DNA of 32,000 nucleotides from Candidatus Hermodarchaeota archaeon (GCA_048886185.1 JBHLKY010000018.1:51251-83250), one strand, 5' to 3'. Counted from the stretch's first letter, positions 11,334 through 31,192 are shown. Numbers and translations are program-made. The notes: generated by a model not told the origin, from the sequence alone.

Positions 11334-11942
11334 TTAAGAAGGTATTGATTTTGTCTTATATTTTGTCCAAGATGTCAGCAAGGGAGCCCGTTGGTTTTTT
11401 TCTATGAACTTCACAACATTAGATCCAAGTAATGAGAAAGCTTGAGGTATCTGTTCCCCAGTTTTTGCAGAAGTTTCAATGAAATGACATTTAAAGCCAT
11501 CAGGCTCAGTAAGGTTAGTAAGGTTCTTAGTAAAGGACCTGCCTTGGCTTGGAGATATATTATTATCTATTTTATCACGTAAATCGATTTTGTTTCCAAC
11601 CACAACAATCGGTACGCGACCACGTCCATTATTAGTCCATAGTTCATTAATCCATTTTGGCATATTATAAAATGATTCGGGACGAGTGATATCATACACT
11701 AATAAACCTCCAACACAACCATTGTAATATGCCTCTCGAACCCCATCAAAACGTTGTTGACCAGCAAGATCCCAAATTTGGTAACGGACTGGAAAACCAG
11801 CAATACTGTCATCACGCATGGCGAAATCTGCACCAACTGTCAATAGATATTGAGCGTTAAATCCGTGACCGATATAGCGTTCCCTAATGGCTGTTTTACC
11901 AACTCCACCATCTCCAATTAACGCGAGCTTATATACCGTCAT
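11334..11942 (-). CDS. Rab-like small GTPase (Ras superfamily, Asgard type)
   Basis: G1 GDGGVGKT, G2 YLLTVG, G3 WDLAGQ followed by RF, G4 NKID, G5 ETSAK. No C-terminal Cys prenylation motif. Confidence 0.93.
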   Translation of the reverse strand: MTVYKLALIGDGGVGKTAIRERYIGHGFNAQYLLTVGADFAMRDDSIAGFPVRYQIWDLAGQQRFDGVREAYYNGCVGGLLVYDITRPESFYNMPKWINELWTNNGRGRVPIVVVGNKIDLRDKIDNNISPSQGRSFTKNLTNLTEPDGFKCHFIETSAKTGEQIPQAFSLLGSNVVKFIEKNQRAPLLTSWTKYKTKSIPS

Positions 11943-15635: not shown

Positions 15636-18122
15636 GTGACAGAATCACTAGCATTTGAACAGCGTGAAATTGTCAAACAACCTTCTACGGTAAGAATTCG
15701 ACAATTACGTGATACTTATTTATCAGAACCATTAATGATCGATCCTGAGTATATTTATCGCTATATGGAAGCTCATCGTAAAACTGATGAAATGAATGTT
15801 CTGGAAAGAAGAGCTGAATGTCATGCTTATGCTTTAGAGAATATAACACCAGTTATAAGAGACAATGAGCTTATTGTTGGAAGTAAAACTAGATTTATTC
15901 GTGGGGCTATTCCTTACTGCAATTATGCTTCTGATTTCATCCGGAGAGTTTTTGAAAAAGAACAACAGGAAGCTCAGGATAGTGTGACAGATTTAGGAGA
16001 GGGAGGTGGAATTGCTAAAGGAAGGGAACTTGCTCAATCAGGAGACTTTGAGATATTTTCACATAAATTTCTAATTTCAAAAAATGACAAAGAACAACTG
16101 AAAGAATGTGCAGAATATTTTAAAGGTAAGAGTATGCAAGACATGGGTGATGCTTTATGGAAAACAACTTTTTCTGAAGCAAATTACATAGAAAAAGGTT
16201 GGGAAGCAGTATTATACACAGCTCCCCATGATCCAGCTCCTGAAGGAAGATATGTTCTTGATTACGAAACAGCATTAAATGAAGGTTTCTTAAAGATTAT
16301 TGATAGAATGCAAAATAATATCTTAAAAACACGAATTACTGACTACAAATCAGCAGAAAAAGTATATTTCTGGCGAGCTGGAATAAGAGTTCTAGAGGCT
16401 ACAATTAATTGGGCTGATAATTATGCTAAAGAAGCAGAAAGATTAGCACAAATGGAAGTGGATCCAAAAAGAAAAGAGGAATTATTAATAATTGCTAATC
16501 ATTGTAAATGGGTACCAAAAAATCCACCAAGAAACTTTAAGGAGGCTGTACAAGCTTTTTGGTTTATCTACTTAGCTGGTCATATTGAGGGAGCTCATCT
16601 TGGGTATTCACCTGGAAGATTCGATAGATATATGTACCCATTCTATAAAGAAGATACTGAAATTTCTGACGATGATGTACTGGAGCTACTAGAAGCTTTA
16701 CGCATAAAAATGACAGAAATTGAATATGTGGCTTCATTCTCATGGGAGGGACTCGGATCAGGAAATTTATTTCAAAATATGATTATTGGAGGGACAGATA
16801 AAAATGGAAGAAGAGGTGATAACGAAATATCAATGTTAATTTTACAAGCAGCTATAAATTGCCAAACAATACAACCAACTTTATCAATATGGTATGATGA
16901 TTCTCTTAGTGAGGAATTTCTTTTAAAAGCTGTCGAATGTGTGAAAACTGGATGTGGTTTCCCCGCTTGGTTTAATCTCAAAATCTATATCCAACATGAA
17001 TTACAAAAATCTGGATTACCAGTTCCTGTTATTAGGAAATATGCTGCTATGGGAGGCTGTACCGAACCAACCATAGAAGGGATGAGTTATGGAATTGTTC
17101 AACCAGGATTTATTAATCATGGGAAATTACTTGAATTAGCAATGTATGGGGGAAAAGATTTACGTACAGGATTGCAATTCACTGAAACAAAGATCCCTCA
17201 AAACTATAAAGAAGTGATTGAAGCTTATAAAACTCATTTAAAAGTATCTATTCAGAATTGGCAATCTTACTGGAACATCGTTATGGCCGCTCATCGACAG
17301 ACCTGTAATCTAATTTACTCTTCTGTTTTAATCCAAGATTGTGTAGAAAGAGGTTTATCTCTTGATGATGGTGGTGCAATTTGCAATGAAGTACCGACTA
17401 CTCTTTCAACAGGCATGGTAAATGTTGCAAATTCTCTTGCTGCAGTAAAAAAGCTTGTAGAAGATCAAAGACTGTATACAATGGCAGATGTTATAGAAGC
17501 TTGTAAAAGTAATTTTAGCAACAATGATGAAATGAGAAGAAAGGCCCTTGATGCTCCTAAATGGGGTAATGATGATGATTATGTGGATGAGATTTTTATC
17601 GATCTTTTTAATACCTACTGTGATTTTGTAAAGAATGGGATAAATTACCTAGGTAAACCATACGATCCATCAATGTTGGCAATTAGTACCCATACACCAT
17701 TTGGGAAAGTAACAGGAGCAACACCTGATGGTAGACTATCAGGAGTATCATTATGTGATGGAGTAACTTCACCATTCCCTGGAACTGACACCAATGGACC
17801 AGTTGCTACAATCTTATCAGCAGCGAAAGTTGACCATACTAAAATACGAGGTGGACTTCACAATATGAAATTCCATCCTAGTGCTCTAAAAGGAATTTCA
17901 GGTTCACAAAAATTAATTTCCTTGATTAAAACATATTTTGATTACCTTGGTTTTCAATTGCAATTCAATGTAGTTGATACCAAGATGTTAAGGGATGCTC
18001 AAAAGAATCCAGATAAATATCGTGATTTAATAGTCAGAGTTGCTGGATTTAGTGCTTTCTTTGTTGAATTAAGTAAGTCTATTCAAGACCAAGTTATCGA
18101 AAGAACAGAGTTAATGCTTTGA
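15636..18122 (+). CDS. glycyl radical enzyme, arylacetate-decarboxylase (HpdB-like) clade
   Basis: Glycyl loop RVAGF (G804), thiyl loop GGCTEP (C475, E477), PKWGNDD, TPDGR. Segments KTRFIRG, GEGGG, PEGR, SGNLF and QPTLSIWYDDSLSEEFLLKAVEC resemble remembered HpdB segments. Confidence 0.9.
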   Translation: MTESLAFEQREIVKQPSTVRIRQLRDTYLSEPLMIDPEYIYRYMEAHRKTDEMNVLERRAECHAYALENITPVIRDNELIVGSKTRFIRGAIPYCNYASDFIRRVFEKEQQEAQDSVTDLGEGGGIAKGRELAQSGDFEIFSHKFLISKNDKEQLKECAEYFKGKSMQDMGDALWKTTFSEANYIEKGWEAVLYTAPHDPAPEGRYVLDYETALNEGFLKIIDRMQNNILKTRITDYKSAEKVYFWRAGIRVLEATINWADNYAKEAERLAQMEVDPKRKEELLIIANHCKWVPKNPPRNFKEAVQAFWFIYLAGHIEGAHLGYSPGRFDRYMYPFYKEDTEISDDDVLELLEALRIKMTEIEYVASFSWEGLGSGNLFQNMIIGGTDKNGRRGDNEISMLILQAAINCQTIQPTLSIWYDDSLSEEFLLKAVECVKTGCGFPAWFNLKIYIQHELQKSGLPVPVIRKYAAMGGCTEPTIEGMSYGIVQPGFINHGKLLELAMYGGKDLRTGLQFTETKIPQNYKEVIEAYKTHLKVSIQNWQSYWNIVMAAHRQTCNLIYSSVLIQDCVERGLSLDDGGAICNEVPTTLSTGMVNVANSLAAVKKLVEDQRLYTMADVIEACKSNFSNNDEMRRKALDAPKWGNDDDYVDEIFIDLFNTYCDFVKNGINYLGKPYDPSMLAISTHTPFGKVTGATPDGRLSGVSLCDGVTSPFPGTDTNGPVATILSAAKVDHTKIRGGLHNMKFHPSALKGISGSQKLISLIKTYFDYLGFQLQFNVVDTKMLRDAQKNPDKYRDLIVRVAGFSAFFVELSKSIQDQVIERTELML

Positions 18123-19075
18123 TGACATTGATACCAGATAATAAAAGTCCATTATCCTTCAAAAATGAAGAAACAATAATTTTTAATATACAAGATTATT
18201 GTGTGGATGATGGGCCAGGAATAAGGACAGTGATCTTTTTTAAAGGCTGTTATCTTCGATGTCATTGGTGTTCAAACCCAGAAAGTCAATTATTTGAGCC
18301 AGAAATTTTTTACTCGGGACTAAAGTGCAAAAAATGTAGAAAATGTGAAAAAACATGTCCAAATTCCAGTATTGATTTTTCTAATATAGAATTCCCACTT
18401 TTTAACAGAAATATTTGTTCAATCTGTGAATCAAAGATTTGTACTAAGGTGTGTCCTGAAAATGCTTTAAGAACTGTTGGTTACCCTATTACAGTTTTAG
18501 ATTTACTTAAGAGAGTAAAAAAGAATTCATTATTATTCAGGAATTCCGGAGGTGGGATTACTCTCTCAGGTGGTGAACCACTGGCTCATATAGCCTTTAT
18601 TAGGGAATTCTTAAAGAAAACTACGGCATTAGGATTTTCTGTTGGGATAGAGACTTGTGGTTTTTTTAATTGGCAAAGGGTGATCGATATTATACCAAAT
18701 ATTGATTTTTTCTTTTTTGACTTGAAGATTATGGATTCAAAATTTCATAAAGCATTAACAGGGGTAAATAATGATAAGATTCACTTAAATCTTAAAAAAT
18801 TAAGTCAAACTGAGGCCAAAAAAATTACTATTTCTATCCCAATTGTTCCAGGTATTAATGATTATCTAGAAAACATTAAAAAAACCGTTAATTTATGTAC
18901 AGAATTTGGAATCAAAAAAATTCGGTTTCTAAAGTATCATGAATGGGGAAGAGGTAAATATGAAGAATTGGGTCGTCAATATTTGCTAAATGAAAGAATG
19001 AAACTACAAGAAAATGATCTTAAAACCTTTGAAAAATTGGCTAAAGAAGCTGGTCTACAAGTTACTATTATTTAG
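18122..19075 (+). CDS. glycyl-radical enzyme activating enzyme (radical SAM with 2x[4Fe-4S] insert)
   Basis: DGPGIRT, CxxxCxxC (GCYLRCHWCSNPE), ferredoxin-like inserts CKKCRKCEKTCP and CSICESKICTKVCP, GITLSGGEP. ATG overlaps the GRE stop (TGATG). Confidence 0.93.
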   Translation: MTLIPDNKSPLSFKNEETIIFNIQDYCVDDGPGIRTVIFFKGCYLRCHWCSNPESQLFEPEIFYSGLKCKKCRKCEKTCPNSSIDFSNIEFPLFNRNICSICESKICTKVCPENALRTVGYPITVLDLLKRVKKNSLLFRNSGGGITLSGGEPLAHIAFIREFLKKTTALGFSVGIETCGFFNWQRVIDIIPNIDFFFFDLKIMDSKFHKALTGVNNDKIHLNLKKLSQTEAKKITISIPIVPGINDYLENIKKTVNLCTEFGIKKIRFLKYHEWGRGKYEELGRQYLLNERMKLQENDLKTFEKLAKEAGLQVTII

Positions 19076-23032: not shown

Positions 23033-23671
23033 ATGAATTATTTAGATAACTTCAAAAGTTTAAGTAAGAAGAAAAAATTGAGTAAGATGGGTATCATTGA
23101 AGAACCAAGAACTTTTTTGTATTACCAAAATCAATTTCCTGATCGCGAACCCCTTATAATGTTTGGGGGATGTATTTTTCAAAATAATGCTGATTCAACC
23201 AGTGAGGCAATTCATGACTTAAAAAAACTTTTCAAAAGCCTACTAGATTCTATAGAACAAGCCTATTTAATTCGTTTCAAGATATCCGAGGTATTAAGGG
23301 GAATAACAGGTGAACTGAATACTGAACTCACAGATCTTCAACAAAGACATCTGGAACATGCCCAAGATTATCACACTCATTTTGGGAAAAACCGTCAGCT
23401 TCGATTACTCATGATGCGGCAATTATATAAATTGGGACTTAGAAATGCTGTATGGTTTACTTCTAATAAGATCCCTCCTTTCCAGCTTTTCTTCTTGCAC
23501 TGGTTAGAAACTATTTTAAATGAATTTTTCTTGGCAGATCTATTAAACAGTCTTGCTCTTAATTTAATACCTAGATTAGGATTAAGTGCTCAAGCTCATA
23601 CGCTTTTAACAAAGTTATCAGCTGAGCTTTCGATCTACGTTCGTGACACTCAAATTCGATATACCATTTGA
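23033..23671 (+). CDS. hypothetical helical protein
   Basis: 212-aa ORF filling the space between two minus-strand genes. Leu-rich and helical; no recognised motif; start uncertain. Confidence 0.5.
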   Translation: MNYLDNFKSLSKKKKLSKMGIIEEPRTFLYYQNQFPDREPLIMFGGCIFQNNADSTSEAIHDLKKLFKSLLDSIEQAYLIRFKISEVLRGITGELNTELTDLQQRHLEHAQDYHTHFGKNRQLRLLMMRQLYKLGLRNAVWFTSNKIPPFQLFFLHWLETILNEFFLADLLNSLALNLIPRLGLSAQAHTLLTKLSAELSIYVRDTQIRYTI

Positions 23672-23850
23672 CCTTATGATTATTGGATTAAGATAAAACT
23701 CATTCAAGTAACAACGAATTTATATGCTTTCATTCGGTTCTTGTTTTGTAATAATACTATCTATTCCTTCAAGACACCAAGAGTTTTCTAATTACAAGGT
23801 AGATTTTAAACCAAATTCAAGTTTTCCATGCATCTTCAATCGATGGAATT

Positions 23851-24549
23851 TTATAGTTTTACCTTCTTCAGATCATTAGAGGTGCCTTTATGTATTGATT
23901 CAAGCTTTTTATTAGTTTCTAAGAGGATTTGTATACTCTTTTCAATTTTTTTAAGCCTATTCTCAACTTCTTTAAATTTCGATTCAAACTTCTTAGCCTG
24001 AGATTCAGATTTTTTTTGATAAGAATTTACTTTCATGAAGTGAGATTCTACTTGCTTGAATTGTTTATTAATATCATCAACCTTAACAGTTATTCCGGAG
24101 TCATCTTTTGAGACTGGAATAGTAAGCTTGGGAGGAGCTGGTGGAGGAACTTCTAGCGATTCCTGTTCGATAATAGGAGGAGGAGGAGGTTGAGATGATG
24201 CTTTTAGGGGGGAATATTCAGAAGGTAATGGTTTGGGAGTTGTAATTGGCGGGATAGAATAGGATGGACTGGGTGGGGGAGGTGTTACTGGAGGAGGTGG
24301 AGTATGGGGACTTTGTGTATGGATAGAAGGAGATTTTGGAGGAGAGTCGGAAGGGGGAAAAGGAGGAACAGATGAACGTTCAGGTGCCCTTATTGGGGGG
24401 GGAGGTTCCTTAAAAGATTCTTGAAGATCTAATGGAATAATTGGTTTTATTTCATCAGCTTCACGATCTGTAAGTGCTTCTTCAGCCCCACAATGAGGGC
24501 ATGGAAAACTCATTACATAATTCCTACATTTTTTGCAAACTGGACTCAT
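23851..24549 (-). CDS. zinc-ribbon / polyproline / coiled-coil protein
   Basis: CKKC...CPHC at aa 5-20; 39 Pro in aa 49-145; unbroken heptad repeat at aa 157-220. Confidence 0.8.
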   Translation of the reverse strand: MSPVCKKCRNYVMSFPCPHCGAEEALTDREADEIKPIIPLDLQESFKEPPPPIRAPERSSVPPFPPSDSPPKSPSIHTQSPHTPPPPVTPPPPSPSYSIPPITTPKPLPSEYSPLKASSQPPPPPIIEQESLEVPPPAPPKLTIPVSKDDSGITVKVDDINKQFKQVESHFMKVNSYQKKSESQAKKFESKFKEVENRLKKIEKSIQILLETNKKLESIHKGTSNDLKKVKL

Positions 24550-24764: not shown

Positions 24765-25125
24765 TTCTCTCTAAATTGAGTACAAGGAGGGGATCCTTTT
24801 TTCGTTCATAAATTCCATCATTCATGTAGACTTATTATGATGATCATTCAAAGATTAAACTCTTTTCCTCTATTTTTCATATATAAATTGGATTTATAAC
24901 CTTTGGTTTCTCTTTTACTGATTTCAAAGGCATTTGAAATGGTAATAAAATAGTATAAAGACAGTTAATAAAAAACTAGATATATTTTCATGTGATAATA
25001 ATAGCCTCAGCTCTACTTTCACTAACTTTTTAAAAACTAAACCAAACCTTAAAGTTTAGTATTGTACTAAGAATTCAACATCATTCCCTTGGTTAAGTAG
25101 GTAAAAAGAGTCCTAGGTCACAAAG

Positions 25126-25133
25126 TTTATAAG
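25126..25133 (+). promoter_or_regulatory. archaeal TATA box of the fakA-fakB-plsY operon (leaderless start likely)
   Basis: TTTATAAG preceded by purine-rich CAAAG, about 20-25 nt upstream of ATG 25152. Confidence 0.55.
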
Positions 25134-25151: not shown

Positions 25152-26201
25152 ATGCAAGTAATACACGAAAAAAAAAATGAGTTGATTTTTGAGATGGTAT
25201 TTCAAGAATTCGCTCAAGAAATATATCCAGAAGTGATTACTGGAAAAGATCTTTATTATATGCTAAAACTAGCTTCCCAAAAGCTAGAAAAATATATTGA
25301 GATACTTAATGACATAAATGTATTTCCTGTACCAGATGGAGATACAGGAATTAACATGCACCAAACTTTTCAATCTATTATCAGGGAATTGAATAATTTA
25401 GAATTTTATGATCATTGTGGAAAAATTATTTGTTCTGCAGCAAAAGGAGCTTTTTTTGGCAGTATTGGTAACTCTGGTATAATTCTAGCTGAATATTTTC
25501 GTGGACTAGAACAAGAATGGAAAAATTCATGTACTATTGACGGAAAACTATTTTCTAGAGGCTTATTTGCAGCAGCAAAATATGCTTACCAAGCTGTTGA
25601 AAAACCTAGAGAGGGAACTATTCTTACAGTTGGAAGAATTATAGCAGAGACAGCAGATGAATGGATTAAGACAGTAACAAATCCTTTTGAATTATTGTTT
25701 ATTGTTTTTGAGGAAGCTAAAGCAGCTTTATTAAATACACATAGAATTTTACCGGAAGCAAATGTTGCAGGGGTTGTTGATGCTGGAGCAATTGGCCTAG
25801 TGCTAATGTTTGATGGATTTATCGAAGCTATGGTTAATAAATATCCATCTAGTGCTCTCCCATTATATACAATTGATGATGACCTAGCTCCTTTTTTGAA
25901 GCTAAAAATTGATTTCTCACTAATTAAGCATGAGTTTGAAGTAATCTTTAAAATCTCTGGTTTAAAGAAACCTATGGATAATCTTAAAGTTGAACTAAAA
26001 AAAGAAGGATCTTGTCTTCTAATTATTAGTAATGATTCAGTTTCTGAAATTAAAGTTCATATCCACTGTACAGATCCTGATAGAGTTATATCGAAAGTAA
26101 AAGATTTTGTAAGCCATATAGAAGTAGATTCAATTAAATCACTAAATGAACAAAATTACCAACTGTCAAAGCGTATCAAAATGAAAAATGGGAGTGAATG
26201 A
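25152..26201 (+). CDS. fakA: DAK2-domain fatty acid kinase catalytic subunit (FakA/YloV-like; N-terminal and middle domains only)
   Basis: LNDINVFPVPDGDTGINM, GNSGIIL, KPREGTILTV, GVVDAG, middle-domain IKVHIH. At 349 aa it lacks the C-terminal DegV-like domain of full-length FakA. Confidence 0.85.
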   Translation: MQVIHEKKNELIFEMVFQEFAQEIYPEVITGKDLYYMLKLASQKLEKYIEILNDINVFPVPDGDTGINMHQTFQSIIRELNNLEFYDHCGKIICSAAKGAFFGSIGNSGIILAEYFRGLEQEWKNSCTIDGKLFSRGLFAAAKYAYQAVEKPREGTILTVGRIIAETADEWIKTVTNPFELLFIVFEEAKAALLNTHRILPEANVAGVVDAGAIGLVLMFDGFIEAMVNKYPSSALPLYTIDDDLAPFLKLKIDFSLIKHEFEVIFKISGLKKPMDNLKVELKKEGSCLLIISNDSVSEIKVHIHCTDPDRVISKVKDFVSHIEVDSIKSLNEQNYQLSKRIKMKNGSE

Positions 26202-27094
26202 ACACGAAAATAGGCGTTGTAACTGACAGTATGTGTGATTTACCATCAAGCACTTCTGAAAAATATGGAATTATAGTTGTCCCAGGTATTGTATATGTTA
26301 ATGGAAATCCCTTCCATAGTGGTGTGGATATTCATCCTGAAGATATCCAAACCATAATAGAAGACAAAGAGAAAAAAATTCAAACAGGAGCACCATCTCC
26401 TGCTGCTTATTATATGGCCTACGAGAATCTATATGATAAGGTAGATATTATATTAAGTTTACATTGCCCTATCAAACATTCAGGAGTGTTGAACGCAGCC
26501 AAAGCAGGTGCAAGACGTTTAGAAGACTCATCTCGGGTTGTTCACTTTGAGTGTGGAGTCGCGACTATTGGTTTAGGAATTACAGCTGTAGCAACAGCAA
26601 TCAAATCACAACAAATCGAAACTAAACAGGAATTAATACGTCTAGTTCAAGAGTATTGTACAAAGATCCAGATAATAGGAACCCTAGAGTCCTTTAAATA
26701 TCTTCAAAGAAGTGGTAGATTAGGCCTAAAAGTTGCGGGTTGGATTGCTAGTACTTTATCTATAAAACCTGTTCTTTTGATGAGAAATTCTGATATATTT
26801 CTGTTAAAAAAACCCCGAGATAGAAAGGTGGCTCTTAATCAGCTTATTTATAATCTATCTAAGAAGATCGATAAAGAAATTAATCCAAAAATTATTGGAA
26901 TTAGTCACTTCGGATGTGAGGGAGAATTAAATGAAATAGAAAAGAAAATAAAAGGAATACTGCCAAATCATATGATTATTAGAGGTTATGCAGATCCAAT
27001 GGTTGCTGCTAATACTGGACCAGGATTAGTATTAATAGCCTACTTCGCTAATTTTATGGATAATTTAGATAATGGAATAAAAATAAATGCTTGA
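26198..27094 (+). CDS. fakB: DegV family fatty acid-binding protein (FakB-like)
   Basis: VVTDSMCDLP, QTGAPSP, HSG, YLQRSGRL, LSIKPVL, NTGPG. ATGA overlap with the fakA stop. Confidence 0.9.
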   Translation: MNTKIGVVTDSMCDLPSSTSEKYGIIVVPGIVYVNGNPFHSGVDIHPEDIQTIIEDKEKKIQTGAPSPAAYYMAYENLYDKVDIILSLHCPIKHSGVLNAAKAGARRLEDSSRVVHFECGVATIGLGITAVATAIKSQQIETKQELIRLVQEYCTKIQIIGTLESFKYLQRSGRLGLKVAGWIASTLSIKPVLLMRNSDIFLLKKPRDRKVALNQLIYNLSKKIDKEINPKIIGISHFGCEGELNEIEKKIKGILPNHMIIRGYADPMVAANTGPGLVLIAYFANFMDNLDNGIKINA

Positions 27095-27752
27095 AATCAT
27101 ATTTTCAGGAATATTTGGCTACTTAACAGGATCAATTTTCATTTCTTATTATTGGGGAAAAATAAATGGTATTGATTTAACAAAAGAGGGGACAGGGCAA
27201 TTAGGCGCATCGAATACAGGTCGAAACTTGGGATGGCCTGCTATGGTAGTAGTTGGGTTATTTGATATATTAAAAGCCACAATTACTCTTACAATCTTGC
27301 ATTTCTTTTTCAATCATATGGTTCCTTCTCCCCATTATGAAGTTTTATTAATAACTGGCAGTTTAGGGATTGTTTTAGGCCATATAAAATCCTTATGGAT
27401 TTGGTTAGAAAAACATGATTGGTATGGAGGAAAAGGAGGTGCACCCTTTGGAGGAATTCTTTTGTTTCTATCATTGGAAAGCTTCATTATTTTATATGTT
27501 GTATTAATGGTTTTTCTGCAACTACTAAAGCTGTTTATATTGAAAGGAGGATCATATGATAACTTCTCAACAAATGTTATTGTTGTTTTATTGTCTCCTT
27601 TTGTCATTCTTTGGTTTACAGGAAAAATTTTATACTTCATTTTAGTACTCCTAATAATTGGTACAATCATTTTCTTTGAAAGGGAGAAAATCGCTAGTGT
27701 ACTCACGATTACATTATTAAAGGGATCTAGAGAAGCAATAGACGAATCATAA
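27087..27752 (+). CDS. plsY: PlsY-family acyl-phosphate:glycerol-phosphate acyltransferase (divergent)
   Basis: GYLTGSI, GTGQLGASNTGR (motif 1), DILK, LGH...GGKG (motif 2), multiple TM helices. Overlaps fakB by 8 nt. Motif 3 is divergent. Confidence 0.85.
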   Translation: MLEIIFSGIFGYLTGSIFISYYWGKINGIDLTKEGTGQLGASNTGRNLGWPAMVVVGLFDILKATITLTILHFFFNHMVPSPHYEVLLITGSLGIVLGHIKSLWIWLEKHDWYGGKGGAPFGGILLFLSLESFIILYVVLMVFLQLLKLFILKGGSYDNFSTNVIVVLLSPFVILWFTGKILYFILVLLIIGTIIFFEREKIASVLTITLLKGSREAIDES

Positions 27753-27803
27753 TAAGCTGAACGTATCTAAAAATTTTTTAAGAAAATTCCCCTTTGTAAG
27801 AAT

Positions 27804-28607
27804 ATGAGTATTGAGCGAGCAATTTATGAAATAAAAACAAAGCACGGAACAGCCCGTCTAATAAATAAAACTGTGGATCGAAGGGGTCTTCCAGTTCTTT
27901 TTGTTCATGGATTTGGTAGTTCACCTGAAATTTGGTTTAAATATCCTGATAGCCTTGGAAAATTCTTTTTACAAAAAAAAGAGATTGATGTATGGAGTTT
28001 AGGATTGTCAAACGCTATTAGTGGTGATATTGAGGTTCTCGCACAGGAAGATCTCTACACTTCATTGAGCTTTATATTCGAGAGGAGTGAAACACTGATT
28101 CATATCATTGCTCATAGTGTCGGGGGAATCATAGTGAGATTTCTTTTATGTCCCCATTTTCAGCATTCTGATTTAAAACCTGAAGAACTTGTTCAAGGAG
28201 TTTCCCTTCTATCTGTACCAAATCATGGAACTAATAAATTTAAGAGTGATAGAATTTGGAACACAATGAGTCTTATTACTAATTATATTAGGTTTAATCA
28301 ATTATTTGTTCAAGTACTTCGATCAAGTGAACTTATTAATGCATTGAATAACCAGAAACCATGCTTGAATCCCAAAGTAAAGTGGCAAAATGCGGTCAGT
28401 TCTTTCGATAACTTAATTGAACCGGAAAGTATGAGATTTATGGAAGAAGAATTGTTAGATATAGATCTTATACAAAAAGAGTTTCCCTGTGATCATATTG
28501 TTTACCCTTTAAAATGGCTTTTTAATGACAATTATCCACCCATCCATAGATACTCACCTGTTGCTGAGTGGATATATAAGAATGCCTTCACCAAAATCAG
28601 TCAATAG
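27804..28607 (+). CDS. lipase/esterase-like alpha/beta hydrolase
   Basis: Oxyanion motif VHGF, nucleophile elbow AHSVGG (S105), PNHGT, FDNLI (Asp), CDH (His). Starts 51 nt after plsY. Confidence 0.8.
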   Translation: MSIERAIYEIKTKHGTARLINKTVDRRGLPVLFVHGFGSSPEIWFKYPDSLGKFFLQKKEIDVWSLGLSNAISGDIEVLAQEDLYTSLSFIFERSETLIHIIAHSVGGIIVRFLLCPHFQHSDLKPEELVQGVSLLSVPNHGTNKFKSDRIWNTMSLITNYIRFNQLFVQVLRSSELINALNNQKPCLNPKVKWQNAVSSFDNLIEPESMRFMEEELLDIDLIQKEFPCDHIVYPLKWLFNDNYPPIHRYSPVAEWIYKNAFTKISQ

Positions 28608-28877
28608 CAAAACTTGTGTTTATAATATTGAGTTTTTAAGATAGTGTCTTCGAATTGAACCTCCTTGACCTTGAATTAAAGAGAAAATTAAATGGCATGT
28701 AAATATTGTTTGCTACAAATTTATTATGACCGGGAAATCAATAAGAAATCTTTCATTGATGTTGTAATGGATGAATTTTCAAACGAATTTTCCAGTTATG
28801 TGTACTTAATCATAGCAAAAGATAGTTGTTAATACATAATCGTCGTAAGCATCTCTAAATATGTTTTTCTTGTTGTA

Positions 28878-29417
28878 TCATTTATATATCTGTAGAAACT
28901 CATATTTTTCGGGATTATCTTCTTTAATTGCTTCAGCAGCAAGTTTAACATCAATTTGGATAATTGGTTCTAATTGTTTCCTCAATTCTTTCGGATCCTG
29001 TGATTTTCTTGTGAACAAAAATAGAGCTTTCCACAGGTGGCCTTCAACAAGATTGATTGCTTCTTTTGTATTTATCTTGAATACTGGATCAAAATTTTCT
29101 CTAAAAGTATTCTCATCATTAGTTTCACTCACAGAGAAAATTAATAATTTCCAGATGTGTTCTCTGACTTTACCTGTGTCAATTTTGACTATTGGTTCTA
29201 GTTGTTTCCTCAATTCATCTGGATCCTGCAATTCTCTTGTTAAAGAGTATAATGTTGACCAAAAAGAGTCTTCAACTAGTTCAAATGCTTCATTTGAATT
29301 TATTTTAAATATTGGCTCATATTTTTCCCTAAAAGCCCCCTCATCACCGATTGTACTGGTTAAGGAACAAACTAACATCCAGAAATGCTTTTTGATCTTT
29401 TCTTGGTATTCTCCCAT
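28878..29417 (-). CDS. helical repeat protein (2 x 76 aa, each built of 40- and 36-aa subrepeats)
   Basis: W at aa 13/53/89/129 and P at 35/75/111/151. QDPxELRKQLEPI occurs twice; the DNA repeat has a 228-nt period (28963 vs 29191). Confidence 0.7.
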   Translation of the reverse strand: MGEYQEKIKKHFWMLVCSLTSTIGDEGAFREKYEPIFKINSNEAFELVEDSFWSTLYSLTRELQDPDELRKQLEPIVKIDTGKVREHIWKLLIFSVSETNDENTFRENFDPVFKINTKEAINLVEGHLWKALFLFTRKSQDPKELRKQLEPIIQIDVKLAAEAIKEDNPEKYEFLQIYK

Positions 29418-29731
29418 ATCATCACCGATTTGAGTCTATGGATACTAAAGTTCTTTCTTCTTGTTTTATTAAAAAAGATAATTTAAACATATTATATTTT
29501 GTCCATCATGTTAAATCTTTTCTGTCAGTAAAAATATATTTTTCGATAATATGTCTTTAAAGTATTCTAAATTAGTGTAAGCTAGTAAAAATAGTGATAA
29601 ATGCGTCACAGGTATATATCACAATTGGCTTTTTTTCCGTATTTGTTTCAAGAGATACGAAAAAAAATCAAGAACTTTTATGGATACTGGTAATCCAACA
29701 AATGGTAATACTTCAGTTCAAATTTATCCTA

Positions 29732-30127
29732 TTATTGATCATTCTCCTTTGGGTCTGATTTTTTTATTACAATAATTTGATCTGTTCCATCAGGACAACA
29801 AGAGTCGACGAATCCGATTACTTTTTGCATCCGAGCGATGACCTTTGTAACAATAGTTTTTCCCTCTGAGGTTATTGCGTAGGTTTTTATCCTCTGATCG
29901 CGGTCCTCTTCGCCCGTGTTCGTTGTTTCGAGAATAAAGCCTTTTTCCAATAATTTCTGTAGTATTTTGTAGGTGGCCCCAGGTGTAGGTGACCAATCCT
30001 CGCCTAAATCTTCTTTGACTTGATTAACAATCTCTGTCCCTGAAACATCGTTATGATTATGGAGTACTAGTAAAAATAATGCTTCTGTAGGGGTGACATC
30101 GAGGTTTTTGCCAAACATGAGATCCAC
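29732..30127 (-). CDS. PadR-family transcriptional regulator with C-terminal Cys-Cys
   Basis: SGTEI...WSPTPGATYKILQKLLEKGFI...RIKTYAITSEG is the PadR wHTH pattern. DSCCPD at aa 108-113. Start is GTG 30127 or ATG 30118. Confidence 0.85.
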   Translation of the reverse strand: MDLMFGKNLDVTPTEALFLLVLHNHNDVSGTEIVNQVKEDLGEDWSPTPGATYKILQKLLEKGFILETTNTGEEDRDQRIKTYAITSEGKTIVTKVIARMQKVIGFVDSCCPDGTDQIIVIKKSDPKENDQ

Positions 30128-30175
30128 TTATTCATAATATACCTAATTCGATATATTTAAAAATGTTTGTTATAG

Positions 30176-30214
30176 GGAATATTCCTGTGGAATATTCTAC
30201 TAAATTATTCCTGA
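30176..30214. promoter_or_regulatory. three 13-bp-period palindromic boxes in the padR/arsM divergent promoter
   Basis: GGAATATTCC-TGT (30176), GGAATATTCT-ACT (30189), AAATTATTCC-TGA (30202). A shared AT box ATATATTTAAAAA lies at 30151-30163. Confidence 0.55.
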
Positions 30215-30241
30215 TCTCTACTATATATGGATTGAAGCAGA

Positions 30242-31192
30242 ATGACAGAACAGAAAATCAAAAAATTGGATGAAAAACAGCCCAGCAGTTATTCCTGCTG
30301 CGAATCAGGTTCAAATGAAACAGAAAGCACTGTTCGTGAATCTAAAACAGCCCAGGCAGATGAAATTCGTAAAAAAGTTCGTAATCAATACGCTACAATT
30401 GCTTCAGGTAACTTTGATCCTGAAAATCCCATTACGGTGGAAGAATCGTCCAGAGAAGCAAGTGGCTATACCGAGTATTCACAAGATGAACTTTCAAGTC
30501 TCCCTAAAGGTGCAAATCTCGGTCTAGGATCTGGTAACCCAGTTGCATTAGCAAATATCCAAGAAGGGGAAACAGTTGTAGACTTGGGTTCTGGAGCAGG
30601 TATAGATTGTTTCTTAGCTGCCAAAAAGGTTGGTGAGTCGGGAAAAGTTATCGGAATTGACATGACACCTGAAATGATTGATAAGGCCCGAAATAACGCA
30701 AGACAAAATAAGTATCACACAGTTGAGTTCCGACTTGGCGAAATTGAACATCTACCTCTTGCAGACAATTCTGTTGATGTTATTGTCTCTAATTGCGTCA
30801 TCAATTTGTCTCCTGATAAATCACAGGTGTTTAGAGATGCCTATCGTGTTTTAAAACCAGGAGGCCGATTGGTTGTTTCTGATATAGTTCTTAATCATGA
30901 ATTCCCCGAAGTTGTGAAAAAAGCTCTAGATATGCCCGGGTGTGTATCGAGAGCGTGGATTAAAGAAGACTATCTAGGTGTAATTGAGGCAGCTGGTTTT
31001 GAAAGAGCGGAACTTCTCGAAGCGGAGCTTATCAAACCTCAAAAACAGCCTATTGAAGTAGGTGATGGTTTGAGAATACGAAAGCTTCGAACATACGACA
31101 AAGAGGTTGAAATCGAACTTACTCCAGAAGAGGATGAACGATTACTCAATACAATTATGAAGGGCCACATTCGAGCTTATAAACCATTTTAG
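30242..31192 (+). CDS. arsM: arsenite S-adenosylmethionine methyltransferase
   Basis: VRNQY, LGLGSGNP, VVDLGSGAGID, GIDMTPEMI, RLGEIEHLPLADNSVDVIVSNCVINL, LKPGGRL, GCVS. Confidence 0.85.
   Translation: MTEQKIKKLDEKQPSSYSCCESGSNETESTVRESKTAQADEIRKKVRNQYATIASGNFDPENPITVEESSREASGYTEYSQDELSSLPKGANLGLGSGNPVALANIQEGETVVDLGSGAGIDCFLAAKKVGESGKVIGIDMTPEMIDKARNNARQNKYHTVEFRLGEIEHLPLADNSVDVIVSNCVINLSPDKSQVFRDAYRVLKPGGRLVVSDIVLNHEFPEVVKKALDMPGCVSRAWIKEDYLGVIEAAGFERAELLEAELIKPQKQPIEVGDGLRIRKLRTYDKEVEIELTPEEDERLLNTIMKGHIRAYKPF

Follow-up and report, generated by a model that had tools for sequence, protein, structure and literature searches.

Enzymes of the PlsY family draw on acyl-phosphate, and in archaea this poses a puzzle: archaea are without PlsX, and therefore no acyl-phosphate source for archaeal PlsY was known. 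PlsY and PlsC homologues of Loki-, Thor- and Heimdallarchaeota have been published (Manoharan 2019, PMC6737245; Coleman 2019, PMC6431249; also Villanueva 2017). The published papers on Asgard PlsY found no PlsX and named no acyl-phosphate source (PMC6431249, PMC6737245), and Coleman 2019 judged a role of the archaeal PlsY genes in lipid synthesis unlikely (PMC6431249). In this study, we analysed a stretch of 32,000 nucleotides of an Asgard archaeal genome (G000:C18:51251-83250, hereafter the window), in which genes for a short FakA-type kinase, a DegV protein, a PlsY-family protein and an alpha/beta-hydrolase stand in a row. In this locus, the predicted acyl-phosphate source is encoded in the PlsY operon, and in a sister family it is part of the same polypeptide. 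We consider it moderately probable that this native operon of the Hodarchaeales is an acyl-phosphate relay, in which a minimal Fak system serves a PlsY-family acyltransferase; we infer all of its catalytic steps.

Organization and conservation of the operon

A sequence-only reading of this DNA had described four co-oriented genes behind an archaeal TATA box, three of them translationally coupled, and had named these three a DAK2 kinase, a DegV protein and a PlsY. This description stood up. The calls of open reading frames (ORFs) place all four genes on the plus strand at 25152-28607 (Table 1), and the Pfam matches bear out the three identities. Direct reading gave an ATGA overlap of 4 nt between fakA and degV (26198-26201) and an 8-nt overlap between degV and plsY (27087-27094). 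The upstream element AAAGTTTATAAG occurs once in the window, against 0.02 occurrences expected by chance, and three orthologous clusters (L046, L048 and L054) have the identical element upstream of them, equally spaced. It is therefore a reasonable reading, in agreement also with the archaeal consensus, that this element is a promoter composed of a B recognition element (BRE) and a TATA box. Since position 25152 is CTG or ACG in the orthologues, the ATG at this position was rejected as the true start of fakA, and TTG 25182 or ATG 25194 is the more likely start. The public gene call for a protein identical to the short FakA has 335 aa. The 51-nt gap between plsY and the hydrolase gene contains a T-run and the TATA-like TTTTTTAAG, and the hydrolase gene may have its own promoter.

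Table 1. Features of the fakA-degV-plsY-hydrolase locus, in window coordinates
Feature	Position	Strand	Description
Putative BRE/TATA-like promoter element AAAGTTTATAAG	25122-25133	+	~24 nt upstream of 25152
fakA (short FakA, FakA_NL)	25152-26201	+	ORF of 349 aa
degV (DegV/FakB-type)	26198-27094	+	ORF of 298 aa
plsY (divergent PlsY-family membrane acyltransferase, predicted)	27087-27752	+	ORF of 221 aa
alpha/beta-hydrolase gene	27804-28607	+	ORF of 267 aa

In the reference genomes, 10 related archaeal loci with this PlsY type were found, and every one of them has the order fakA-degV-plsY; the contigs concerned reach 410 kb. Conservation of the cluster in related genomes, which the sequence-only reading had proposed as a check, was thereby confirmed. 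The overlapping genes recur while the flanking genes vary. Neighbours in the window (23033-24549 and 28861-31192) were not found beside the orthologous clusters, and the module alone is conserved. In a sister family of the same taxonomic order, PlsY and the short kinase are joined in a PlsY-Dak2-FakA_M fusion protein of 571-598 aa (PF02660, Dak2 and FakA_M), which is followed by an overlapping degV gene. Four fused PlsY-FakA proteins were present among 5.8 billion clusters; the gene for one of them is carried by a 90.8 kb contig, where the ribosomal protein genes L5e/L18p, L19e and L32e and an Arf-like GTPase gene adjoin it. Judging from the ten loci and from the fusion of the genes elsewhere, the arrangement is not a matter of chance. 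Because PlsY is fused to the kinase in the sister family, the fusion argues that acyl-phosphate made by the kinase would be handed to this PlsY. Another family of the class has the order fakA-degV-plsY with a canonical PlsY (160 bits, HRxNI kept).

Two subtypes of the cluster exist in the genus: one with the hydrolase gene, whose PlsY is 66-85% identical to that of the window, and a paralogous one without it, whose PlsY is 50-59% identical. One genome carries both. Purifying selection acts on each of the four window genes, judged by ratios of nonsynonymous to synonymous substitution rates (dN/dS) of 0.05-0.26 (0.10-0.26 for the short FakA and 0.07-0.16 for DegV).

The distribution was surveyed in 400 sampled Asgard genomes, of which 82 are other members of the window's class, which holds the Hodarchaeales and the Heimdall groups, and 317 lie outside it. 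The short FakA was found in 66 of the 82 genomes of the class versus one of the 317 outside (a weak match), and DegV in 70 of the 82 versus none of the 317. Going by these gene matches, the Fak system is a trait of the window's class. Since both genes are class-wide, a recent bacterial import into one bin was rejected. Within the genus, FakA, DegV and PlsY are jointly present in 10 of 22 species (G000 and 9 of the 21 others) and jointly absent in 12. One of the 12 genomes without the module is a single contig and is 96% complete.

DegV is strongly expanded in two families of the class, where each genome has at least six scored copies and the candidates number up to 29, as compared with 1-2 copies in the window's genus. 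In family f4 (G002-G032), the kinase is split further into a Dak2-only gene (~214-260 aa) and a distant middle-domain gene (~100-120 aa), as at G006:C1:1635858-1636502 and G006:C1:57714-58013, and many f4 genomes carry Dak2 in two copies. Downstream of the fused plsY-fakA and degV, genes for a radical S-adenosylmethionine (SAM) protein, a DUF1786 protein and an Arf/Ras-like GTPase follow in the same order at L043:1458-5152 and L111:8655-12364.

Origin of the DNA

A cluster of this kind in a metagenome bin might be bacterial contamination or a chimeric join. The bin (4.84 Mb, 96% complete) has an estimated contamination of 4.96%, and the window begins directly after a scaffold gap. There is, however, no gap inside the window, and therefore one uninterrupted stretch joins the module to the gene for a Ras-family GTPase at 11334-11942. 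The GC content of the module (0.32-0.34) matches that of the contig (0.34) and the genome (0.35). In other Asgard bins, contigs of 87 kb and 410 kb carry orthologous clusters, and such clusters adjoin Arf/Ras GTPases, leucine-rich repeat (LRR) proteins or archaeal ribosomal proteins. The closest homologues are titled Hodarchaeota, Promethearchaeota or Heimdallarchaeota archaeon. Among bacterial proteins, even the nearest ones reach an identity of just ~30% for PlsY and 34-37% for FakA, and a recent transfer from Bacillota was rejected on these grounds. Four sediment metagenome runs of one study contain the window stretch and may be where it came from; none of the runs listed with the stretch was of RNA. 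The genus of the window genome also holds Ca. Hodarchaeum mangrovi FT_5_011. The GC match, the GTPase gene on the same stretch and the orthologues in other Asgard bins establish the archaeal origin of the contig, about which the sequence-only reading had asked. Bacterial contamination is refuted as far as sequence evidence goes, and we regard it as extremely improbable; by the same evidence, the module DNA is native to an Asgard archaeon of the Hodarchaeum genus.

A short FakA and its putative FakB-type partner

The product of fakA matches Dak2 (PF02734, 104 bits) and FakA-like_M (PF21645, 36.5 bits). It aligns to positions 1-302 of the 530-position YloV model (TIGR03599) with 221.6 bits (cut-off 396.1) and to positions 3-318 of the 549-position FakA model (NF038248) with 159.5 bits (cut-off 975). 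Among PDB entries, FakA_N structures from S. suis and S. aureus match it best. An alignment of 18 sequences shows no variation in the motifs NVFPVPDGDTG, GNSG, EGTILT and DAG or in the middle-domain HxH. The identification as FakA holds for the Dak2 domain with its ATP/Mg motifs; the middle domain is present with its HxH but has Glu for the Cys of the zinc site, the FakB-binding C-domain is lacking and the cut-offs of NF038248 and TIGR03599 are not reached. The predicted complex of the short FakA with DegV had a score of 0.01 and was used neither for nor against the pairing.

Short FakA forms occur in candidate-phyla bacteria too. In Candidatus Nealsonbacteria (L112:5001-7206), a short FakA gene (317 aa, no C-domain) overlaps a FabF-type ketoacyl synthase gene, and no DegV or PlsY gene is nearby; it was seen on many contigs.

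The DegV protein, which is the sole DegV in the window genome, scores 155 bits with PF02645 (cut-off 27) and 183.3 bits with TIGR00762 (cut-off 99.7), and its PDB matches are DegV/FakB structures. In FakB, T61, S93 and H266, and also R170, take part in binding the carboxylate of the fatty acid (PMC10848957). The window protein keeps the Thr, the Ser and the Arg of GGR that are equivalent to T61, S93 and R170. It is predicted to be a fatty-acid-binding protein of the FakB type, with fatty acid as its ligand.

A PlsY with an altered acceptor pocket

The window PlsY, also the only one in its genome, scores 81.2 bits with PF02660 (G3P_acyltransf, cut-off 24.1) and 67.9 bits with the equivalog model TIGR00023, below its cut-off of 137.2. 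Its AlphaFold model (predicted local distance difference test score, pLDDT, 86.7) matches only the Aquifex PlsY structures (5xj7, template modelling (TM) score 0.72/0.82, root-mean-square deviation 3.2 A). Motif 1 is GTGQLGASNTGR, and motif 3, HRxN, is EREK in the window protein.

We compared the substrate-site residues defined in the Aquifex enzyme by Li et al. (PMC5700162). At the acyl-phosphate site, H92 is kept (as H99), as is the GGKG loop that forms the phosphate hole, after a 5-residue insert, and T41 is conservatively replaced by Ser. In the pocket for sn-glycerol-3-phosphate (G3P), the phosphate clamp retains R45 and K104, whereas its S35 and N180 are Thr (T36) and Lys, respectively. 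Among the residues at the 2-OH, H177 is Glu, and S142 has no placeable equivalent. Position 177 is acidic in each of the 27 members of the clade, with Glu where PlsY stands alone and Asp where it is fused; since it is kept throughout the clade, this acidic residue looks like a new constraint rather than decay. Position 180 is Lys, Ser or Thr in the 27 members, with Ser or Thr in the fused forms.

The PlsY proteins of other families of the class have canonical motifs. In the PlsY tree, the fused and unfused proteins form one clade (99% by the Shimodaira-Hasegawa-like approximate likelihood ratio test, SH-aLRT) separate from these canonical proteins. The tree came from a quick search with a midpoint root, and its bacterial rows were picked by likeness to the query. 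Tentatively, it places the clade as sister to a Bacillota PlsY-like group (89% support).

The hydrolase

The fourth gene had been taken as a lipase that frees the fatty acid. Its product has weak alpha/beta-hydrolase matches (DUF7379, DUF676 and PGAP1), below the Pfam gathering score, and members of its family weakly match DUF7379 as well as families that work on lipid esters, among them DUF676, PGAP1, Lipase_2, Palm_thioest and LCAT. The family is small, with 32 relatives among 1.84 billion representative proteins. In 22 homologues, HG (35-36), H104-S105-x-G-G108 (AHSVGG), D202 and H231 are invariant or nearly so; these residues supply a nucleophile elbow and a Ser-Asp-His triad together with an HG oxyanion motif. 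The structural model (pLDDT 89) has an alpha/beta-hydrolase fold. Foldseek gave generic matches to lipases and esterases, a membrane phospholipase A and monoglyceride lipases at TM scores of ~0.6; no specific lipase family stood out among these matches, and phmmer against PDB sequences gave nothing significant. No N-terminal hydrophobic segment that might serve as a signal peptide was seen.

The hydrolase gene belongs to the clusters of one subclade of the genus and is absent from the paralogous and fused clusters. A homologue with 31% identity is encoded divergently upstream of a more distant fakA-degV-plsY cluster of the same PlsY type, so the association of the hydrolase recurs in a second arrangement. 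Thus the Ser-Asp-His hydrolase stands, but the likeness to lipases and esterases is generic, and the absence of a signal peptide, the restriction to one subclade and a possible own promoter count against the lipase claim. It is plausible that the enzyme frees fatty acid inside the cell, and this is the weakest link of the model.

A paralogue of the hydrolase (40% identity) is encoded at G000:C4:191326-192207, away from the module. In two relatives, unrelated genes of the Abhydrolase_1 type (L141:4036-4848 and L048:8013-8825) are found adjacent to a fak-plsY cluster or 1.5 kb away from it; the identity between these two hydrolases is 19%, which is no useful homology.

Lipid genes elsewhere in the genome

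At a completeness of 96%, the genome gave no match to PlsX (PF02504), nor was a KAS-type fatty acid synthase found; this supports a route without PlsX, as originally proposed. The genome search gave one borderline PP-binding match (25.6 bits) for an acyl carrier protein. There are five acyltransferase genes of the PlsC family (PF01553), none of which reaches the cut-off of TIGR00530. GlpK (701 bits, cut-off 590) and two GDPD genes are present, as are GGGPS, CarS and two G1PDH-like genes, which score 283 and 325 bits, below the G1PDH model cut-off of 413. Therefore, both glycerol phosphates and a full ether-lipid route are, on the gene content, available. The candidates for GpsA were weak N-terminal matches (33 bits), best read as other NAD-dependent dehydrogenases. 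The search for plsC, gpsA, glpK and G1PDH that the sequence-only reading had suggested thus turned up PlsC-like, GlpK and G1PDH-like genes but no clear GpsA.

The proposed relay and its alternatives

In the proposed relay, DegV, as a FakB-type protein, would bind a free fatty acid. The short kinase, with the N and middle domains of FakA and with ATP, would phosphorylate the fatty acid held by DegV to acyl-phosphate, and the co-translated PlsY-family enzyme would move the acyl group to a phosphorylated acceptor of the glycerol type at the cytoplasmic face of the membrane. The Ser-Asp-His hydrolase would probably supply the fatty acid by intracellular cleavage of ester lipids, and the fatty acid so freed may belong to lipid turnover and re-acylation or come from imported esters. 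FakA and FakB alone can feed PlsY without PlsX (PMC13400652). Of the sequence-only reading, the gene identities, the tightly coupled unit and a route without PlsX find support; it needs correction as to the kinase, which has no C-domain, the G3P pocket of PlsY and the lipase.

Several observations weigh against such a relay. No match to PF13684, the C-terminal EDD-fold domain that binds FakB, was found in the short FakA or in the whole genome (96% complete). In favour of the kinase step, S. aureus FakA_NL, which is without the C-domain, is an active kinase with FakB1, with a Km for FakB of 0.99 uM versus 0.09 uM for the full-length protein (PMC9136124), and by this analogy a natural two-domain FakA kinase is plausible. 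The middle-domain metal site of S. aureus FakA consists of C240, H282 and H284, and the C240A change drops activity more than 100-fold. In the window clade, the Cys of this C1H3 zinc site is Glu, whereas the fused forms have Cys and the short forms of candidate-phyla bacteria have Asp. The Glu could bind a metal. FakB His266 hydrogen-bonds the carboxylate; at this position DegV has Asn in the window subclade, whereas the paralogous and the fused subclade have His. In the Aquifex PlsY, mutating the S35, H177 and N180 positions costs most of the activity (PMC5700162). The module is absent from 12 of the 22 species of the genus and is therefore, judged by gene presence, accessory. The joint presence and absence of FakA, DegV and PlsY in the genus is suggestive; it does not count as independent evidence, given that the genes share one contig and the genomes are related. 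Finally, in the one cultured Asgard archaeon, a Lokiarchaeon, lipid analysis detected no lipids other than archaeal ones, as cited in PMC13400652.

If the relay operates, its acceptor could be G3P, as in bacteria. The product would be lysophosphatidic acid, which a PlsC-family enzyme would convert to phosphatidic acid, and bacterial-type diacyl ester phospholipids would be built from scavenged fatty acids. A supply of G3P exists in GlpK and the two GDPD, the five PF01553 genes offer candidates for the second acylation, the phosphate clamp still has its R45 and K104, and another family of the class has the same operon with a canonical HRxNI PlsY. Against these stand the replacements in the pocket, with H177 changed to Glu or Asp and N180 to Lys, Ser or Thr in 27 of 27 clade members and S35 changed to Thr. 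In the Aquifex enzyme, no tested residue replaces H177, N180 substitutions lose most of the activity, and S35T keeps 17% (PMC5700162). The low score of PlsY with TIGR00023, those of the PlsC homologues with TIGR00530 and the lack of a clear GpsA point the same way. We therefore consider lysophosphatidic acid, as claimed for this PlsY by the sequence-only reading, not warranted given S35T, H177E and N180K, and the G3P route, though a serious option, rather unlikely. Alternatively, the remodelled PlsY may use an archaeal acceptor, which could be sn-glycerol-1-phosphate (G1P) or else an ether lysolipid, for example geranylgeranylglyceryl phosphate, to give G1P-based acyl lipids or mixed ether/ester lipids. 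The changes hit residues that place the 2-OH and the phosphate of G3P, whereas the acyl-phosphate site is retained, the clade-wide acidic residue 177 points to a new constraint, and the G1PDH-like genes, GGGPS and CarS are in the genome. Ordinary bacterial PlsY accepts both G1P and G3P (PMC13400652). This fact cuts both ways, since an enzyme that already takes G1P would not need a remodelled pocket. The G1PDH-like matches remain under their cut-off, and no such lipid from Asgard archaea was reported in the literature searched. We rate an archaeal acceptor, too, as rather unlikely, though likewise to be taken seriously.

The module might also act outside membrane lipid synthesis, in the handling or detoxification of fatty acids, in sensing, or in the acylation of a non-lipid acceptor; the PlsY homologue would in that case have ceased to be an acyltransferase for glycerol phosphate. 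Its accessory distribution (10 of 22 genus genomes) and the change of several residues that are important in the model enzymes of PlsY, FakA and DegV would fit this, and regulatory side-effects of Fak are described for S. aureus (PMC5539427). The operon link and the fusion of the kinase to a polytopic protein with the PlsY fold, however, argue for acyl transfer at the membrane, and the acyl-phosphate site is conserved and all genes are under purifying selection. A role outside membrane lipids is thus quite improbable, and an acyl-phosphate relay to PlsY is the reading we prefer.

Comparison with known systems

The FakA/FakB to PlsY route of Bacillota (S. aureus, S. suis and B. subtilis; PDB 7W7H, 7RM7 and 4X9X) shares with the archaeal operon a Dak2 kinase, the DegV fold and a PlsY that draws, or in the archaeal case is predicted to draw, on acyl-phosphate. 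The ATP/Mg motifs, the HxH, the Thr, Ser and Arg of FakB and the acyl-phosphate site of PlsY are all kept. Unlike its Bacillota counterpart, the archaeal FakA is without the C-domain, so that the known docking site of FakB is missing, and has Glu for Cys at the zinc site. The three archaeal genes form one operon, fused in the sister family, with no PlsX and with an altered acceptor pocket in PlsY, and the host is an Asgard archaeon with a complete set of ether-lipid genes. The S. aureus FakA_NL of Subramanian et al. 2022 (PMC9136124) has the same two domains as the short FakA. It is, however, a laboratory construct with a ~11-fold higher Km, whereas the two-domain form of the archaea is natural and class-wide. 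The dihydroxyacetone kinase DhaL/DhaK likewise has a Dak2 (DhaL) subunit and holds its substrate on a separate EDD-fold subunit, and Shi et al. drew this parallel for FakA_N and FakA_C (PMC10848957). In the archaeal system, by contrast, the substrate holder is predicted to be DegV and the middle domain is specific to FakA; DhaL models score ~19 bits on the short FakA.

Bacterial fusions of PlsY with DegV (UniProt A0A0P6X7I7 and A0A0P6XUK7) were noted in 2017 (PMC5700162). There too a Fak component stands at the C-terminus of PlsY, and the fusion was read as a direct hand-over of acyl-phosphate. The bacterial fusion partner is the binding protein, whereas the archaeal one is the kinase, and an overlapping degV gene comes next. 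A DegV-like stretch follows ~450 bases past the PlsY match at L103:5001-5950 (Acidimicrobiales) and L108:5001-6007 (Actinomycetes), and these may be fusions of the bacterial type.

The published PlsY and PlsC of Asgard archaea are also bacterial-type acyltransferases and have been discussed in connection with the lipid divide. The window PlsY belongs to a separate and divergent clade relative to those homologues, and here an acyl-phosphate source is predicted beside PlsY or fused to it. While Asgard PlsY and PlsC were already known, we found no published report of the link between Fak and Asgard PlsY, and no paper that connects Fak or DegV with Asgard archaea was found in the literature.

The Hodarchaeales are the archaea placed closest to eukaryotes, and the membranes of eukaryotes consist of ester-linked fatty acids. 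It is conceivable, though we hold it to be unlikely, that a minimal Fak, tethered or fused to a re-tooled PlsY, ester-links fatty acids to G1P or an ether lysolipid and so yields heterochiral or mixed ether/ester lipids. If a fatty acid were in fact ester-linked to an archaeal backbone, this would be a living intermediate across the lipid divide. The cassette is small, with three genes, or two in the fused form, and therefore the ester-lipid capacity of these relatives of eukaryotes, and the glycerol phosphate on which it acts, can be tested in vitro. A kinase that is truncated by nature and an acceptor pocket with replaced residues are also relevant to the mechanisms of Fak and PlsY.

Other features of the window

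Beyond the hydrolase gene, two overlapping ORFs on opposite strands (190 aa on plus, 179 aa on minus) lie at 28861-29433; they have no family match and no counterpart adjoining the orthologous clusters. A gene for a PadR-family regulator is divergent from one for a SAM-dependent methyltransferase at 29732-31192. A glycyl radical enzyme of 828 aa that resembles pyruvate formate-lyase is encoded at 15636-19075, and the gene for a radical SAM activase overlaps its end.

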